Below, piece after piece: positions 25,564 through 33,125 of a DNA stretch of 64,000 nt. A program made the position numbers and the translations under genes. Each line of letters starts with the position of its first letter. Within the stretch, counting starts at the first letter, position 1. This DNA is from Candidatus Bilamarchaeaceae archaeon (GTDB taxonomy: Archaea > Micrarchaeota > Micrarchaeia > Anstonellales > Bilamarchaeaceae), in assembly GCA_038870635.1 (NCBI GenBank), contig JAVZJR010000002.1:335-64334 (forward strand). Direction: 5' to 3'. A model generated the notes under the pieces. That model searched no databases. It was not told the DNA's origin and saw only the letters and a program-made list of their open reading frames with translations.

Positions 25564-26700
25564 TTAAATTAATTTAACCAAACCTCTTCCAACCTCCGGG
25601 ATGTTGCCACCAAGCAGATTGGTGCTATTGAGTACAAATGTCATAGTTATAATCATTGCGATTAAGGGCGCGATGCACACAGCATTTACCATTGTCTGTA
25701 GTAATATCAGTATTCCTTTGCCACCAAGTCCAAGAAAGTTTTGTATCGCATCTTTATACGCTTTTAAGAAAGTTATACTTTTCGTTACGCTTGAAAAGCC
25801 CCCCCACCCGCAACCTTCTTTTATTTCTGAGAAATCAGGTACGCTACATAGCTGTTCGTAATGTAAATTTATTTGTTCTGGGGTGCAGGTTGCTTGAAGG
25901 GGGTTTTGATAGTTGTGCGCGGTCAGAGAAGTTGTTTCCCATGTAGAGGGAAGACTTATAGAAGAGAACATTACATACGCAGCCGGGAATACAAAATAAA
26001 ATCCAATAGCAGCAGCCATAAAATAAGCTCCAGCTCCTCTTGTTGGCGGTAAAGCGCGAAGTGCGACCCCGACTGTGAAAAAGAAGCCTGCAAATACTTT
26101 AATGAATTTTATTATGTACATCAAAACATAATACGCATAAAGATAGAATGACAATATGCTTGTAACATTTTTTATTCTTTCAGCGATAGGTTTAATACCA
26201 AAACCAGTTGCAAGTTCAGACATGAATATTTCACTATACCAACTTGCTGCTGCATCTACTGGAATACTCAAAACATACAGCGCGTCGAGTGTTCTTATAG
26301 CACAGTTTTTAGTAGGAGAAAGATAAAGATCAATATAATCCGAAGGTGCGCTTATAGGTGCACTTATCTGTGCAGTTGGAGAAAAACAACCGAATGTTGC
26401 CAAGTATGATGTTTTTAGTATTACATCATCTAAAAGAGGTTCTCCTATAGCAATTAGAAACCCTACTACTATAACAATCGCAATCGTTGACATAGCATAT
26501 ACAAATTCAGTTTTTGCTATTTGCTCAAGATTTTTAAGAGAGAATATTCTTGATAGAACTATTAGTCCGGCCGCAGCCACTATAGCGATTCCAGAAATAA
26601 TTATGGATAACGTCATCCAATCTGCATATGCTGACCTCATAAATGTTTGAGCACGCACGATTGAAAAAAACAAAATTAAAAACAAAAGCATTTTTTTCAT
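25564..26700 (-). CDS. Polytopic membrane protein, paralog 1 of 6 (CedA/VirB6-like candidate)
   Basis: Signal peptide; hairpin LSRIFSLKNLEQIAKTE; core GVALRALPPTRGAGAYF..FYFVFP; C-terminal LLGGNIPEVGRGLVKLI. Confidence 0.75.
   Translation of the reverse strand: MKKMLLFLILFFSIVRAQTFMRSAYADWMTLSIIISGIAIVAAAGLIVLSRIFSLKNLEQIAKTEFVYAMSTIAIVIVVGFLIAIGEPLLDDVILKTSYLATFGCFSPTAQISAPISAPSDYIDLYLSPTKNCAIRTLDALYVLSIPVDAAASWYSEIFMSELATGFGIKPIAERIKNVTSILSFYLYAYYVLMYIIKFIKVFAGFFFTVGVALRALPPTRGAGAYFMAAAIGFYFVFPAAYVMFSSISLPSTWETTSLTAHNYQNPLQATCTPEQINLHYEQLCSVPDFSEIKEGCGWGGFSSVTKSITFLKAYKDAIQNFLGLGGKGILILLQTMVNAVCIAPLIAMIITMTFVLNSTNLLGGNIPEVGRGLVKLI
26663..26700. repeat. 38-bp near-identical repeat encoding the signal peptide of paralog 1; second copy at 31798-31835 (paralog 5)
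   Basis: gaaaaaaacaaaattaaaaacaaaagc(a/g)tttttttcat, 1 mismatch. Confidence 0.9.
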
Positions 26701-27761
26701 TATATCAGCCTCATAAATGAACTCAAATCAACTTCCTCGCCTAAAGACTTACTCAAACCGCGCGCCGTCTGCACAAAAATAAAAGTATTGAATAGCGGAA
26801 TCATAACACCAATCAGAAAAGCTCGCGCTATTATTCCTGAAGCAAAAGCAACTACTGTGAAAAATAGTGAGCCAAAGAAATTTTGTATGAATTTATAAAT
26901 CATAAAAACTGGAGAGAATATGAGCGTCCATATAGTTAAATCGCCAAATATCATACTCTTTATTGTTTCTACTGTGTTAGTTAGGTCATTTGTTATGTTT
27001 GCGAGCGTAAGGAAGTTATTAAAAGATGTAAGAGGCCCGTCATCAGAATATAATACGACATAATCCAACGTTATCAATAGCGGAAAAGCGATTAATAAAA
27101 CCGCGCTTATTGCTATTATGCTGCCCCCTACTTTTCGTGTTGGCGTGAAGCAACGAAGAAAAACTCCAAGAGGTAAATAATATTTAAGAAAAGCATCCAG
27201 TGCAAATAGATAAGTAAAATATTGGGCATAATTTACTATATACGCAACCACGAGGGTTATCATTGATGTTCTGAGCAATTGTTTTAGCGGACCTGCTGTT
27301 CCTGCAAGCGGTGTTGATACAAAACCAACTCCTAAAGGCCTTGTGTGTGGATTTGCAGAAGACATAAGATCAATGGGCATATTGTATATGTAGGTTATCT
27401 GTACCCAACCTAAAATATCTTCTTTTACCTTTATGAAATAATCACCTGTAATATCATAAACGTTTTTAGTCGGTGCGGTTCCAGCTGGTATAAAGTTTGA
27501 TGGTACTACTGTTCCAATTGTTATATTATTTAAGGTGCCTACAATCATAACTATAAAAGAGAGCATTATCGCAGAAACAATGAGTTCAGTAAGTTCGAGT
27601 TTTACACTTCCTTTCATTTGTTCATTTCTCCAAAGTGTTGCCCAAATATATACAAAAGCAAGAAGTATGGCAGAGGTTGTTAATGCAAGTGTAGAATTTG
27701 CTATAAGGTCTCCTGGGAAACCAGCCAAAGCCGAATTTATTATTTCTTGAGCAGTAAGCAT
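26700..27761 (-). CDS. Polytopic membrane protein, paralog 2 of 6
   Basis: YIWATLWRNEQMKGSVKLE; GVFLRCFTPTRKVGG..IAFP; LGEEVDLSSFMRLI; stop overlaps next start (TAATG). Confidence 0.75.
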   Translation of the reverse strand: MLTAQEIINSALAGFPGDLIANSTLALTTSAILLAFVYIWATLWRNEQMKGSVKLELTELIVSAIMLSFIVMIVGTLNNITIGTVVPSNFIPAGTAPTKNVYDITGDYFIKVKEDILGWVQITYIYNMPIDLMSSANPHTRPLGVGFVSTPLAGTAGPLKQLLRTSMITLVVAYIVNYAQYFTYLFALDAFLKYYLPLGVFLRCFTPTRKVGGSIIAISAVLLIAFPLLITLDYVVLYSDDGPLTSFNNFLTLANITNDLTNTVETIKSMIFGDLTIWTLIFSPVFMIYKFIQNFFGSLFFTVVAFASGIIARAFLIGVMIPLFNTFIFVQTARGLSKSLGEEVDLSSFMRLI

Positions 27762-27770
27762 TTATTCACC

Positions 27771-28997
27771 TTATATGATTTTTAGGAATGACATGTAATT
27801 AACATCCGCCGCACCTAGCCGTCCTGCAATTTCTCTAGCATAAGTTAATGTTATGAACACTGAGAAGAATGGAAGTACCGCTCCCATAATTACCACATAG
27901 TATACGCTATTCCTAAGAAGATCGTATGTTCCTACAGCAATCACACCGCAAATTAGGGGAATTAATGCCCCTCCACCTAATATGCCGAATGCAAGGGCCA
28001 TTCCAGTCAAGCCAAAAACACCGCTCTTGGCAACAATGTCTTTTAGTTGTTCTAAGTTGTCTACTAGATATGGTTGAAGAAGTTTGTGTGTTTCGTACAT
28101 GATTATAAACATAATTGGATACATAATGAGCAATGCAATCATTAAAGAAAAAAGAGCAACACCAACTTGTCTTGTTTGAGGAAAAGCTCTTAAAAATATT
28201 GATAAGGGAATGAATAATGACCAACTCCATTTTTTTATGAAGCATAAAAGTATACCTTGGGCCAACCATTCACCTAATGCTAAACCCATTGATTGTAGTC
28301 CTATTGAAACAAGGTCAATAAAAGGTTTAAGAGCAGTGCCGAGATTAAAATTATACATAGAACGGAAGTTAGTACCCACATACATTGTTGCAGTGTAAAA
28401 AATGTGTAAAAGCGTGTTGAAAAGAACCATTGCAGTGTAATTTTTTGATATCTCTGCTACCATTAAGCGAGTAAATGCTATTGCTGCATCTATATATGTA
28501 TCTTTTCCATAATAAACTGGATCAGTAGGTGGTATATTGGAAGTTACAATTTTATAAAAGTAGTTTCCACTTGTTATAATCCCTATAATGACAAGAACAT
28601 TTATTATTGTAAACAATATTGTTATCGATTCATTTTTGACAAATACAATTAAGTTAGGCATCTGGAATATCTGCCCTATCATATATATCAATGCTTCAGC
28701 AAAAATCACTATTATGAGAGCAAGAATTGTTAGTTCTAAGTAGTCAAAGAATACGGGGGCCGGTTCACAACTACCAGTGCTCAACGCCGCAAACATTAAT
28801 GTTACGCCACTGCTGGCCGCTGTAACAGTTACGCTTCCTGTTCTTATGAATGCATCTGCTACATTGTTTATTGTATCCACAGTGTCACTTATGAAATTTT
28901 GAAAATCTGATTCTGTCGGCTGGGCGGTTTGTTGGGCATAAAGAGCGCATGAAAGAAAAATTAAAGATATTATAAAAACAAAATTTTTATTCATCAT
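27771..28997 (-). CDS. Polytopic membrane protein, paralog 3 of 6
   Basis: YMIGQIFQMPNLIVFVKNE; SIFLRAFPQTRQVG..IMYP; LGAADVNYMSFLKII. Confidence 0.75.
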   Translation of the reverse strand: MMNKNFVFIISLIFLSCALYAQQTAQPTESDFQNFISDTVDTINNVADAFIRTGSVTVTAASSGVTLMFAALSTGSCEPAPVFFDYLELTILALIIVIFAEALIYMIGQIFQMPNLIVFVKNESITILFTIINVLVIIGIITSGNYFYKIVTSNIPPTDPVYYGKDTYIDAAIAFTRLMVAEISKNYTAMVLFNTLLHIFYTATMYVGTNFRSMYNFNLGTALKPFIDLVSIGLQSMGLALGEWLAQGILLCFIKKWSWSLFIPLSIFLRAFPQTRQVGVALFSLMIALLIMYPIMFIIMYETHKLLQPYLVDNLEQLKDIVAKSGVFGLTGMALAFGILGGGALIPLICGVIAVGTYDLLRNSVYYVVIMGAVLPFFSVFITLTYAREIAGRLGAADVNYMSFLKII

Positions 28998-30322
28998 ATC
29001 AACCTTGTTAATCCTGCGAGTTCGATATCACCGCCAAGTGTCATGGCAATAGAACGTGTTGCGGCTATACTTCCAAAAATACTGAAAATGAAAAAGAAAA
29101 CAGAGAAAAAGGTGATTCTCGCAGTTATGTCTATATATCCATTATCTCTCCAATCATTGACTGTATCGACAGCAATATTGTGCGTGAAGAAATAAGTAAA
29201 CCATTCTAACATAAACTTTCCTGCTTCAACGACAATATTTTCTTTCTCGCTATCTGATGTTTTTGACCCTAAATCAAAACTGGGATTGAGTCCTTTTTCC
29301 TTTATGTATTTTTGTCTTTCATCCGGAGTCATTAATTGGAGAGCAGCATCAACCTCTTGCGTTTTTCCATAATCTTCCAATATTGTTATCCCACCTATAG
29401 TAGTGTTACCACTTGCGTTTATATATAACGTGTTTATTATGGGCGGGTCGTATGATCCTCTTGGATTTGCTTCTGTATTAGAAAGCCAGGTCGGTCGTGC
29501 TTCTTCTTTTATTTTTATAAGCAGCAAGCCACCTAACGCATATATTGATGGGTAGATGAAATAACCAGTTAGGGCTAAAGCCATCAGTAATCCTCCTAGA
29601 CGACGAGTAAATGTAAAAGTTCGAAGAATACCTCCACTTACCAGCATAATTGGGAATACGGCAATCGCGAAATATTTTATTAATATTTCTTGGAATTTCG
29701 TTAGAAACAATATTCTGGTAAGCCATTTGAAAGAGTATTCAATAACTTGGTTTCTTCTTGAGAAAAAACCTTTCCAAGGTACCCACATCTCCATTCCCAT
29801 CTTTTCATATATTGTTTGGATTGTTACAGAACTCTCAGCAATCATAGACGTCCAAGAGTAAGTGCGTAAAAGATTATATCCAAATATTCTTCCTTCTTCA
29901 TAAATTGTTCTTAAATAATAAATAGCAAGACGCAAATGACATGCAGAAATGTTTTCGTAACCATAGATGTTTTGTCCAGCGTTACAAAGGTCTACTTTTT
30001 GTTCTACATAGCCTGAAGGCGTGGGTACCTTTATGTAAGTAACTGTATTGCTTTGTCCGAGATTAAGTGCAGCGCTTGTTATCATTGTGACTATTGGTAC
30101 CAAGGAGAATAACAAAACAATTATTATAATAGAATAGAATATTTCGTAGAGCTCCATTTTTGCCCAGCTTTTTATTTTTTCATTCATTAAAAATGAGCCT
30201 ATTAAGTAGATGATGGACACTATTAAAGTAGCTATAATGAAAAAAACTCCTGTAAGGGCGATGTAATTTTGTAATAGCGCATCTACGAATGTTGCCGTGT
30301 CCATTTCAATCCCTTTTGACAA
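28994..30322 (-). CDS. Polytopic membrane protein, paralog 4 of 6
   Basis: YLIGSFLMNEKIKSWAKME; GGILRTFTFTRRLGG..FIYP; LGGDIELAGLTRLI. Confidence 0.75.
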   Translation of the reverse strand: MSKGIEMDTATFVDALLQNYIALTGVFFIIATLIVSIIYLIGSFLMNEKIKSWAKMELYEIFYSIIIIVLLFSLVPIVTMITSAALNLGQSNTVTYIKVPTPSGYVEQKVDLCNAGQNIYGYENISACHLRLAIYYLRTIYEEGRIFGYNLLRTYSWTSMIAESSVTIQTIYEKMGMEMWVPWKGFFSRRNQVIEYSFKWLTRILFLTKFQEILIKYFAIAVFPIMLVSGGILRTFTFTRRLGGLLMALALTGYFIYPSIYALGGLLLIKIKEEARPTWLSNTEANPRGSYDPPIINTLYINASGNTTIGGITILEDYGKTQEVDAALQLMTPDERQKYIKEKGLNPSFDLGSKTSDSEKENIVVEAGKFMLEWFTYFFTHNIAVDTVNDWRDNGYIDITARITFFSVFFFIFSIFGSIAATRSIAMTLGGDIELAGLTRLI

Positions 30323-31835
30323 TAAACTTTATCAATGCGTTTATAAACGCTACCGTAATGACCATGGATACTGCAGGAGCAAAAAAACCAAAAAGCGATA
30401 TTGTTGCGATGTAGTCTAATATAGTCATATATTGACTAATCATTATGAGCATGATGGTTCCTTCAAATACTAAGGGTTGAAGAGCTATGGAAAGTGTTTG
30501 GGCTGCAGATGAACTAAATACGCCTACAATTTTTGGAATTAGAATTGCTGGCGCGCTTAATGTAAAAAAGTTAACGCCACAGATGTGCGCTATCAGCTCT
30601 ATTGGTTCTCGATATGTGATACCTATCTCGTTAAACACTATTGCGTTTATTATATATGTAAGGGGATAGACAACTTGCAATCCTATAACTATGGCTAAAA
30701 GAAAAGCGCCAGCATCTTTTGTTGGCGGAAAAAAACGTAGGACAGCACCTGCGGGCAAGAGTAATGGCACAACTAGCGCATCTATTATCAAAAGCAAAAG
30801 CAATTGTGCTTTTAAACTTCCCTCCAACATTATAAGGCTGTTTGCTAAAATTCCAGAAAGAGTGGTAAACGTATCCATTCCTGGATAGATTTTATATACC
30901 GTGCTCAGTACTGATTCACCTGTTCTCTTATAAAATGTATTTAGTACAGAAGTGCAGACTTGGATTGTATAGCAATCTGTTCTTGCTATTTCAGTATCTT
31001 TTATTATTTTTTCTAAGATTAAGGCTGCTCCTGCAGGTACGCTGGGAGCTTTTTCTAAACCACTTATGCCGGAGTTCTTCATTAAATTGTTGGCGAACTC
31101 TGTGCTCACCGAGAAAAATCCAAATATAAATATTATTATAAGTATTGCGCTTGTAAGATCGGATAGTTCGACTGTAAGGTATGCTTCCCATTCTGGTACT
31201 TTTAAAACCTTTGAGGCCAGATATGTAATGAGTACAATACAGCCTATCATCACTATTATAAGAGCTAAAATTTGCTTGTAAAAATCAGTAATTGGTATGG
31301 GTATCTGTAGAGCGAATTTTGCAATAACTTCGAAAAGAATTATATATAAAACCGAAGCCATAATAGTTGCAATTATTATTGTTTGTGACCAATCTGTTGC
31401 CTTTGCTCTAGTTTCTGCACCAAAAAGTTGGCCAACTATATATACTAAAGCTGCTGTAATAGTGAGTAGTATTATGAGGTTTAGTAATGAATCTCTAGCA
31501 AGTCTTGCTACTTCAACTATCATTTTGTCAAGTGTTAGTGTCGGTGCTCCACCAGTGACCCAATTAGGCAAGAATGCATATAATAGAATGAGAACAATAG
31601 TAGATACGAAACTTGCAGCTATAAGAGTCTGCGCCCAATTTTGTATTTTTGCTCTAGTTTCTGCACCAAAAAATCCTGCTAAAATATAGGCTGTCGCAGA
31701 CACCACTAAGGCAAGCATAACTAATCCTATCAAAAGTGCCTCTACTGTTCTTGCCCAATCCGTGGCAATGTCTAACACACTTTGCCCAGCCACCAAAGAA
31801 AAAAACAAAATTAAAAACAAAAGCGTTTTTTTCAT
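30306..31835 (-). CDS. Polytopic membrane protein, paralog 5 of 6, with two extra N-terminal pilin-like hairpins
   Basis: Two FGAETRAK..W units, then YLASKVLKVPEWEAYLTVE; GAVLRFFPPTKDAG..VVYP. Confidence 0.75.
   Translation of the reverse strand: MKKTLLFLILFFSLVAGQSVLDIATDWARTVEALLIGLVMLALVVSATAYILAGFFGAETRAKIQNWAQTLIAASFVSTIVLILLYAFLPNWVTGGAPTLTLDKMIVEVARLARDSLLNLIILLTITAALVYIVGQLFGAETRAKATDWSQTIIIATIMASVLYIILFEVIAKFALQIPIPITDFYKQILALIIVMIGCIVLITYLASKVLKVPEWEAYLTVELSDLTSAILIIIFIFGFFSVSTEFANNLMKNSGISGLEKAPSVPAGAALILEKIIKDTEIARTDCYTIQVCTSVLNTFYKRTGESVLSTVYKIYPGMDTFTTLSGILANSLIMLEGSLKAQLLLLLIIDALVVPLLLPAGAVLRFFPPTKDAGAFLLAIVIGLQVVYPLTYIINAIVFNEIGITYREPIELIAHICGVNFFTLSAPAILIPKIVGVFSSSAAQTLSIALQPLVFEGTIMLIMISQYMTILDYIATISLFGFFAPAVSMVITVAFINALIKFIVKRD
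31402..31672. repeat. 25-bp identical direct repeat inside paralog 5 (31402-31426 and 31648-31672)
   Basis: tttgctctagtttctgcaccaaaaa, encoding FGAETRAK on the minus strand. Confidence 0.9.
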
Positions 31836-31838
31836 TTT

Positions 31839-33125
31839 TCACACCAATTTTGACAATCCGGGCAATTCTGCTTCTCCCCCTATGAGCAACGCAATATTTC
31901 TGTACATCGTAACTGTTATCATTATCTCGGCTACTGTGGACACAGTGACAACTACAAACAGTTCTGCTAATTTTACTATTTGATCGGTTAAAAGAGTATA
32001 TATGCTTAATGTCATGCCAACAGGAAATAATATGCTTCCAGAACCAAAAAGATATTTTAAAAATCCACCGCTATATGTAATCATTTCTTTCGTCGCTTGC
32101 CATATCGCATCTAAAAAAGGACCAACTACAGGTATATTGGTGCTTACTTTTACTAACTTATCAACAGCACATAGCATATATTTTGCTGCTTTTGCCAAAT
32201 TTGAATCACTGTCTATTATTCCGCATGCATTTTTAGCCGCACTTGCAGCTTCTGCTCCTTTTTCACTTCCCATCTTTTCTTGAATGGCTTGGTCCTTGTT
32301 TTTGATATCATTTATCATATTATTTATATCACTTTGACTCATTTGTGTTTTGAACGGACTAGCTTGTTCGATATAGTTGTAATCAAACTTTAATCCGTAA
32401 ACATCAAATATTGTATAGAAAGAAAGCATTACTGCAAGAGGATATACAAAATATAATGCAAAACAAACTGCTATTATTGTTGAACCAGTAGTTCTTGTGA
32501 AAGGATTCGACCGCAGTACTATGCCAAATGGGAGTAGTACGAGAGGTATAACATTTTTAACAAAAATCATAAGAAGGCTTTTTCCCCATACAGCTAGTAC
32601 AAGTAAGCCGACACCGTCTACGACAGTAGTGAGCGCGTTGCTTATTAGTCCTATTCCACCATATGGTGCGATGTAAAGTGAAAATAAACCGATGCCGCCA
32701 GGCAGTGTCCCGAGGTTAAAGCTTAGTGTTGACATAAAACCCAAAAAGAAGTCTATAAGAGCCAATCTTAGATAAAGCGAAAATAATTCATTTCTAAATA
32801 CTTCTAATTGTAATAATGCCAGATTGATATGGCCAATTGGCAAGCCCTTAAACATACCGCTTTGCACTTCGGCTGTATTTATCAACGCAGATATAACATT
32901 AAACAAAAAGCTATCAAAGCTTAACCAAAAAAGTATTATTACTAAAGAAAAAATGAATGCTGCTATATTTTCCTGTGCTAATGCTTTGTGATCAGGATGT
33001 TGAGTAATCGAAGCAAAAATATAAAACATTAAAGCAAGCGCTATTGAAATTACTAGGCAAATGCCTATTATTTGCCATGCTCCGGTTGGCAATGACATTA
33101 GTATTAATGGGAACGACAGTAACAT
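31839..33125 (-). CDS. Polytopic membrane protein, paralog 6 of 6 (first in operon)
   Basis: YIFASITQHPDHKALAQE; GIVLRSNPFTRTTG..FVYP; IGGEAELPGLSKLV. Confidence 0.75.
   Translation of the reverse strand: MLLSFPLILMSLPTGAWQIIGICLVISIALALMFYIFASITQHPDHKALAQENIAAFIFSLVIILFWLSFDSFLFNVISALINTAEVQSGMFKGLPIGHINLALLQLEVFRNELFSLYLRLALIDFFLGFMSTLSFNLGTLPGGIGLFSLYIAPYGGIGLISNALTTVVDGVGLLVLAVWGKSLLMIFVKNVIPLVLLPFGIVLRSNPFTRTTGSTIIAVCFALYFVYPLAVMLSFYTIFDVYGLKFDYNYIEQASPFKTQMSQSDINNMINDIKNKDQAIQEKMGSEKGAEAASAAKNACGIIDSDSNLAKAAKYMLCAVDKLVKVSTNIPVVGPFLDAIWQATKEMITYSGGFLKYLFGSGSILFPVGMTLSIYTLLTDQIVKLAELFVVVTVSTVAEIMITVTMYRNIALLIGGEAELPGLSKLV

Follow-up and report, generated by a model that had tools for sequence, protein, structure and literature searches.

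Why does a polytopic archaeal membrane protein begin with two copies of a short helical hairpin, and why are the DNA segments encoding their loops identical over 25 nt? The question is posed by a 64,000-nt stretch of DNA from a Candidatus Bilamarchaeaceae archaeon (contig JAVZJR010000002.1, positions 335 to 64,334; hereafter the window), whose genome we examined as an 859-kb assembly that is ~90% complete. Here the P5 gene (30306..31835, minus strand) codes for a 509-amino acid protein and is the second of six paralogous genes in an operon. The explanation that we favor as a whole, with moderate confidence, is that P5 carries two retained VirB2/CedA1-like pilin modules on a platform made of the six paralogs, where they would dock or nucleate free pilin.

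An earlier note on this DNA had described two FGAETRAK units ahead of the hairpin that is usual for the paralogs, and this arrangement is confirmed in P5. From the N to the C terminus, the protein comprises a signal peptide, two pilin-like units, the paralog-common hairpin and a polytopic core, all encoded on the minus strand. The signal peptide (residues 1-19, MKKTLLFLILFFSLVAGQS; 31779..31835) is assigned from hhalign and from helix 2-15 of an AlphaFold2 (AF2) model. Unit 1 (TAYILAGFFGAETRAKIQNW; residues 20-100, 31536..31778) was detected by a hidden Markov model (HMM) with an independent E-value (i-E) of 9e-21 and is modeled as helix 20-55, the FGAETRAK loop and helix 58-88, followed by an external Pro/Gly-rich linker. 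Unit 2 (LVYIVGQLFGAETRAKATDW; residues 101-183, 31287..31535; i-E 6e-23) has the same loop between helices 102-137 and 140-176. The two units are helix-loop-helix repeats of 82 residues, with an ungapped identity of 47% over the whole unit. Both are located upstream of a third hairpin (residues 184-253, 31077..31286) with the invariant loop KVPEWEAYL, which is the start of the ancestral paralog body and the point at which orthologs without fused units begin. The core (residues 254-509, 30306..31076), delimited like the third hairpin from ortholog alignments, contains the invariant motif LPAGxxLRFFPPT[KR]DAG and two invariant cysteines, C294 and C419, which may form extracellular disulfides.

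The AF2 model of P5, calculated with 98 sequences, has a mean predicted local distance difference test score (pLDDT) of 89.3 and a predicted template modeling score (pTM) of 0.76, and shows 13 long helices, several of them strongly hydrophobic. The two units are modeled at pLDDT 93-98 as pairs of helices of 31-37 residues, with hydrophobic cores flanking the loop. Each unit is thus predicted to be a transmembrane helical hairpin with both ends outside and a basic G-A-E-T-R-A-K/R loop in the cytoplasm, as cleavage of the signal peptide would leave the N terminus of P5 outside and place both loops on the cytoplasmic side. P5 orthologs have 505-530 residues, the top database match (96% identical) coming from a Candidatus Bilamarchaeaceae metagenome-assembled genome, and both loops, with the consensus Y-x-x-G-Q-x-F-G-A-E-T-R-A-[KR], are retained in orthologs down to 32% identity.

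Stand-alone homologs of the units, which the earlier note had looked to as a check on its pilin comparison, do exist. The comparison is thus not refuted by the outcome that the note had specified, a dissimilar fold combined with a lack of such homologs. The unit HMM identified two tandem genes among the six-frame open reading frames (ORFs) of this genome (i-E 2e-18; C1:207057-207500, 147 amino acids, and C1:207780-208208, 142 amino acids; both outside the window), and 106 of 121 Micrarchaeota genomes contain the family, frequently as tandem arrays of 2-4 copies. The two genes are part of a 708-nt duplication with 97% identity; they are identical over their first 366 nt, and their divergence is restricted to the C-terminal tails. 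Their products consist of a signal peptide, a Gly/Ser-rich linker, a hairpin (...VIYTAGQIMGAETRARANVWATAML...) and a short tail, with the AF2 model placing the helices at residues 49-88 and 91-126 around the loop GAETRA[KR]. In a protein database, we found 761 small homologs of 105-150 residues with a hydrophobic leader. Their alignment reveals an almost invariant core, Y..GQ.MGAETRARA.VWAT, and an invariant cysteine before helix 1 and after helix 2 (C61, C138), a pair flanking the hairpin which may form an extracellular disulfide; this disulfide could be a non-covalent-backbone analog of the head-to-tail cyclization of T-pilin and TrbC.

Profile-profile alignment with hhalign matches the stand-alone family to both units of the P5 orthologs, to unit 2 with 99.4% probability (E 1.9e-21) and to the signal peptide plus unit 1 with 99.1% probability (E 1.2e-18), positions 17-114 of the family being aligned to residues 3-105 of P5. 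P5 thus consists of a paralog body with two pilin-like genes fused to it. For the remaining five paralogs, hhalign gave no significant match between the N-terminal hairpin and the family (best g3, 26% over 28 columns), which leaves the idea of pilin-like hairpins in all paralogs without support. One apparent stand-alone match, ORF L018:3745, was discarded as an artefact: a loosely written regular expression had admitted it to the seed alignment, and it produced extreme branch lengths in the tree. A tblastn search of 72,556 plasmids with one pilin-like member returned no match. In two distant Micrarchaeota (L079, L080), a free pilin-like gene follows an uncharacterized protein of 1420-1435 residues and precedes several conserved small ORFs; these loci have no ATPase gene within 10 kb and may represent a second conserved neighborhood.

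The fusion has occurred more than once. The pilin module is found twice on g1, the gene encoding P5, in this genome and in about 45 species (two genera in our sample), once on g0 in L046 and L050, once each on g0 and g5 in L049, and on no paralog in L055 and L060. In the five lineages just named, the g1 orthologs lack units, have 314-345 residues and start at the third hairpin. The units fused to g0 and g5 group with free pilins rather than with P5 units (99/100 support), which indicates independent fusions. Repeated independent fusion of the same genes is a classical sign that their products interact physically. Together with the other evidence, the fusions tie the six-paralog complex to a putative Ced/type IV secretion system (T4SS)-like machine of the DNA-transfer type. 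In the unit tree, unit 1 sequences form a supported clade of their own (98/85) beside the unit 2 sequences. The duplication of the unit is thus older than the divergence of P5's clade, and the two copies have not undergone wholesale concerted evolution.

We then considered the nucleotide identity between the two units. A repeat search detects a direct repeat of 60 nt with 77% identity in the P5 gene, at a spacing of 246 nt (82 codons). It contains an exact run of 25 nt on the minus strand, at 31648..31672 in the unit 1 loop (codons F56 to A62 and flanking bases) and at 31402..31426 in the unit 2 loop (codons F138 to A144 and flanking bases). The run reads TTTGCTCTAGTTTCTGCACCAAAAA on the plus strand and TT TTT GGT GCA GAA ACT AGA GCA AA in the sense direction; it corresponds to the seven whole codons of FGAETRA plus 2 nt on each side, and it does not occur anywhere else in the genome. 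The earlier statement that the DNA for FGAETRAK is identical including wobble positions thus holds for seven of the eight residues but not for the lysine (AAA versus AAG), while the reported divergence of the flanks is borne out, only 5 of 16 informative identical residues outside the motif using the same codon.

This identity most likely goes back to a short tract of gene conversion between the units, for which the only strictly protein-conserved stretch would have served as the seed. Given identical residues and the codon usage of this genome, the probability that all seven codons agree is 0.0015, and the contrast between 7/7 identical codons in the core and 5/16 outside has a hypergeometric probability of ~0.003. 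Across 26 genomes, identical residues use the same codon in 57% of cases in the motif cores (35% expected from local codon usage) and in 45% of cases in the flanks (34% expected). The excess in the cores persists after correction for motif-specific codon preference (94/170, 55%, versus ~72, 43%, expected; permutation p<0.0002), a test in which one obvious case was left out and in which noisy codon-rank estimates could inflate the excess. In an ortholog at L011:10001-11551, the two units share an identical run of 75 nt and are 94% identical over 84 nt, a clear intragenic gene-conversion tract. Within the operon studied here, the first 38 nt of the P5 gene (31798-31835) and of the last paralog, P1 (26663-26700; both minus strand), agree at 37 of 38 positions (MKKTLLFLILFFS and MKKMLLFLILFFS). 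This identity is located in signal-peptide codons and is present in relatives of the same genus but not in L067. As a signal peptide is entirely lacking from most P1 orthologs, the P1 leader was probably gained recently by copying of the P5 5' end. Together with the L011 tract, this points to short-tract ectopic conversion being active at the locus.

A serious rival to conversion is that the 25-nt identity is uninformative: the genome is AT-rich, and chance combined with its strong codon preference may have produced the agreement at residues that are strictly conserved. TTT, GCA (used twice), GAA and AGA, which make up five of the seven codons, are top-ranked for their amino acids and the other two, GGT and ACT, rank second, so that part of the agreement may be due to selection for preferred codons. 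The stand-alone genes use nearly the same codons (GGT GCA GAA ACA AGA GCA), and the 25-nt finding was picked post hoc. We nevertheless regard this explanation as doubtful, given the two probabilities reported above, the family-wide excess that survives the codon-rank correction, and the tracts in L011 and between P5 and P1. The identical 25 nt are found in two assemblies that are 95.5% identical at the nucleotide level, and the two loops differ at several synonymous sites in the more distant relatives L067 and L001 (67% and 59% protein identity, respectively). That the identity is not kept in these relatives counts in favor of chance, and it makes a conserved DNA or RNA element unlikely. Of the two causes put forward in the earlier note, gene conversion hence remains plausible, whereas a constraint at the RNA or DNA level does not agree with this lack of nucleotide conservation. 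The P5 repeat is a probable case of short-tract gene conversion inside one gene.

Are these hairpins related to the VirB2/TrbC-type T4SS pilins, as had been suggested from the sequence? We scanned 81 members of the stand-alone family, each singly, against Pfam. The T4SS_pilin model (PF18895) matched 46 of the 81, with a best score of 22.3 bits (cut-off 26.6), and the TrbC/VIRB2 model (PF04956) matched 35, the best at 27.1-27.3 bits (cut-off 27.9) and over profile positions 8-98 of 98. The NCBIfam model for TrwL, a VirB2 family (NF033899), matched one member at 2.9e-6 (27.6 bits, cut-off 100). In a control with 60 reversed members, no pilin family appeared among the 25 most frequent ones, and the best E value was 9e-4, defining a noise floor of ~1e-3. 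The pilin-profile search thus gave near-threshold VirB2-type matches in the stand-alone family but did not reach a curated cut-off. In Patescibacteria, proteins have been accepted as VirB2-like at i-E<0.001 and coverage above 50% (PMC12102498); by this rule, several stand-alone members would be called VirB2-like. Like VirB2/TrbC pilins, the family consists of small precursors (~100-150 residues) with an N-terminal signal peptide for which cleavage is predicted; the stand-alone proteins and the P5 units also share with them a pair of hydrophobic helices and, between these, a short loop with positive charge. AF2 models the stand-alone protein as a signal peptide followed by a long helical hairpin, a fold that a pilin could have.

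A stronger argument for the pilin reading than the profile scores comes from the genomic context. This genome contains two paralogous ATPase modules outside the window, both starting with a 260-273-residue protein with two transmembrane (TM) helices (the 2-TM protein) followed by a 477-529-residue ATPase. In module 1 (C1:175315-178234), these are followed by a protein of ~240 residues; module 2 (C1:385647-391881) has the same order and is extended by a gene for an 862-residue protein that also has two TM helices. In NCBIfam, the ATPase matches CedB (4.5e-30) and the VirB4-like CD1110 (4e-27) best, both ahead of HerA; the match of the 2-TM protein is to the N-terminal region of CedB (9.5e-5). 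The modules thus represent a split CedB/VirB4. The loci L081-L085, from five other Micrarchaeota lineages, have one to three pilin-like genes directly upstream of the gene for the 2-TM protein, the complete order being pilin, 2-TM protein (~270 residues), ATPase (~523 residues), a protein of ~245 residues and a protein of ~870 residues. This upstream arrangement is the virB2-virB3-virB4 order. At a sixth locus (L086), a pilin gene is found nearby, on the opposite side of the ATPase. Among the 121 genomes, 113 have the ATPase and 108 have the paralog family. The same ten genomes lack both the pilin and the paralog families, with no or only a weak match for the ATPase, and the phyletic pattern of the three is close to all-or-none. 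These findings together largely support the proposed resemblance to VirB2/TrbC-type pilins, by way of the stand-alone family, its near-threshold pilin matches and its synteny.

Several observations weigh against a pilin platform. No family member reaches a Pfam or NCBIfam curated cut-off, the stand-alone protein of this genome matches PF18895 with an E value of only 0.55, and the models for the unrelated polytopic Yip1 and Cyt_bd_II families match about as often as the pilin models. A search of the PDB with the stand-alone family profile finds a spurious proteasome motif but no pilin, and Foldseek comparison of the stand-alone hairpin with the PDB returns generic helical hairpins only (all E>=2), as the fold is too simple to discriminate. 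The P5 orthologs have no pilin-family match in the Pfam and NCBIfam scans. Neither the P5 core nor the other five paralogs are similar to CedA, VirB6 or TrbL in Pfam or NCBIfam, or in Foldseek for P5, and the VirB4 N-terminal domain (PF03135) is absent from this genome. The components are also dispersed here, with pilin genes, ATPases and six-gene operon at three separate loci: the pilin genes are ~178 kb from module 2 and ~30 kb from module 1, so that they adjoin neither VirB3- nor VirB4-like genes, and the operon is adjacent to neither pilin nor VirB4/CedB ATPase genes. Finally, the co-absences fall within five related families and thus reflect few independent events.

These points could be accommodated if the hairpin family were an accessory component of an ATP-driven membrane machine, a small two-helix subunit that does not form filaments and of which P5 carries two copies. 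The weak pilin matches would then reflect convergence between proteins that combine a signal peptide with a hydrophobic hairpin, in line with the subthreshold scores, the equally frequent matches to unrelated families, the negative Foldseek and PDB searches and the lack of a VirB6/CedA signal in the core. We consider this unlikely, because three independent VirB2-type models rank at or near the top with full-length, in-register matches that disappear upon sequence reversal, because the genes take the virB2-virB3-virB4 order beside an ATPase that best matches CedB and VirB4, and because the 2-4-copy tandem arrays resemble the VirB2 arrays of Patescibacteria (PMC12102498).

For the fused units themselves, the earlier note had offered two possibilities, a covalently fused pilus base and pilin subunits released by proteolysis. 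The former is favored as most likely, and the latter is unsupported. It is very unlikely that the units are polyprotein precursors from which an external protease or signal peptidase, cutting at the boundaries, frees pilin subunits. In favor of such release, helix 2 of each unit has the inside-to-outside orientation of a signal-peptide hydrophobic core, with a conserved Pro and a Gly-rich turn after it, and known VirB2 and TrbC pilins are matured by proteolysis (PMC9905601). Against it, nearly every genome that has the system contains dedicated pilin genes with their own signal peptides; the linker between the units varies in length and sequence among P5 orthologs, and no A-x-A-type site is conserved in it; the invariant cysteine pair of the free pilins is missing from the units; AF2 models the units confidently within the whole chain; and some lineages have no fused unit at all.

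We thus propose the following model for the P5 units as retained pilin modules. A polytopic membrane complex built of the six paralogs, and conserved in most Micrarchaeota, would have P5 as its second subunit; at the 5' end of the P5 gene, this clade has acquired by fusion two copies of a free-standing VirB2/CedA1-like pilin gene along with its signal peptide. Both units would stay covalently attached as membrane-embedded pilin-like modules and serve as built-in docking or nucleation sites, such that free pilins, supplied by the two tandem genes elsewhere in the genome, are recruited to or polymerized on the six-paralog platform. The split CedB/VirB4-like ATPases, also encoded elsewhere, may power the machine. 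As we detected no relation of the core of the six paralogs to CedA, VirB6 or TrbL, our claim is that the complex works like such a platform, not that it belongs to one of these families.

We compared this putative system to others for which pilin and platform components have been reported. Like VirB2/TrbC T4SS pilins, the family combines a small signal-peptide precursor with two hydrophobic helices and a short basic loop, occurs in tandem arrays, and in other lineages precedes a 2-TM protein and a VirB4-like ATPase. Unlike them, it scores just under the curated cut-offs and has two copies fused in tandem to a polytopic protein; instead of the head-to-tail cyclization of T-pilin and TrbC, its conserved cysteine pair may tie the two ends. 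The Ced and Ted DNA-import systems (PMC9905601), whose pilins are described in Thermoproteota, likewise have an archaeal host and a hairpin pilin, with TedC also carrying a cleaved signal peptide. Beltran et al. reported that the N terminus of CedA is homologous to the pilin CedA1, and that of VirB6 to VirB2 (PMC9905601). P5 is, like CedA/TedA, a polytopic partner with a pilin-homologous N terminus (hhalign 99%, two units), and the ATPase has CedB as its best NCBIfam match. The present system differs in that the partner is a six-paralog operon with no detectable CedA/VirB6 similarity rather than a single CedA, in having two pilin modules instead of one, in the splitting of CedB into a 2-TM protein and an ATPase, in the scattering of its components over the genome, and in belonging to a DPANN lineage rather than to Thermoproteota. 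With the T4SS of Patescibacteria (PMC12102498), it shares an ultrasmall episymbiont lineage, a chromosomal, core-genome T4SS-like system, and divergent VirB2-like arrays near virB4 with a VirB3-like partner; the Patescibacteria system is bacterial, derived from MPF-FATA and has a recognizable VirB6, and the passages of that study consulted here make no mention of pilin-to-platform fusions.

How DPANN archaea attach to their hosts and take up host material is a long-standing question. To our knowledge, almost no DPANN host-interaction machinery has been assigned beyond the nanohaloarchaeal giant proteins with VirB4-like domains. VirB4-like ATPases have been noted in those proteins (PMC10266531), and in a literature search we did not find VirB2-like pilins, arrays of them or pilin-platform fusions described for Micrarchaeota. 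Our analysis suggests a concrete and testable parts list for this phylum, comprising a widespread VirB2/CedA1-like pilin family, split CedB/VirB4-like ATPases and a six-paralog membrane complex, and would extend the CedA/VirB6 pattern of a platform with a pilin-homologous N terminus to a tandem double module in a new phylum. A bolder and quite unlikely extension is that the six paralogs form a pseudo-hexameric VirB6/CedA-type channel, whose pilin modules nucleate an ATPase-driven, VirB2-like protein-lipid tube as a conduit from Thermoplasmatales hosts. If this were true, the tube would be the 'cytoplasmic bridge' for uptake of DNA, nucleotides or lipids from these hosts, and the symmetry mismatch between tube and platform would be determined by how many modules are fused (0, 1 or 2) and by where they are (on g0, g1 or g5).

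The six paralogous membrane-protein genes are co-oriented and tightly packed on the minus strand, from 33125 down to 25564. Gene g0 (31839..33125, 428 amino acids) precedes P5, and g2-g5 (442, 408, 353 and 378 amino acids; 25564..30322) complete the operon, which is a conserved core-genome feature in Micrarchaeota with divergent AspRS and SurE genes as conserved neighbors. Pfam and NCBIfam scans returned nothing meaningful for P5, the five other paralogs or 20 orthologs. A PDB sequence search with P5 found a spurious proteasome motif only, and Foldseek comparison of the whole AF2 model with the PDB gave nothing better than E 0.5, with VirB6 outside the top 50. An ORF of 130 codons on the strand opposite the units (31297-31689) was treated as a shadow of the coding frame.

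Two further observations concern sequences at and around these loci. Comparing P5 with its 95.5%-identical relative, 44 of 68 differences fall within a 127-nt patch at 30462-30588 (gene nt 1248-1374, residues 416-458), and 6 positions differ in the two pilin units. The patch suggests a mosaic or diversifying segment, possibly an external loop. On C1, a repeated intergenic element with similar spurious ORFs (...FYVRWTYVFIGHRSR...) is found at 180624-181058, 204186-204575 and 206548-206841, a few kb from ATPase module 1 and also on the downstream side of the pilin gene pair.

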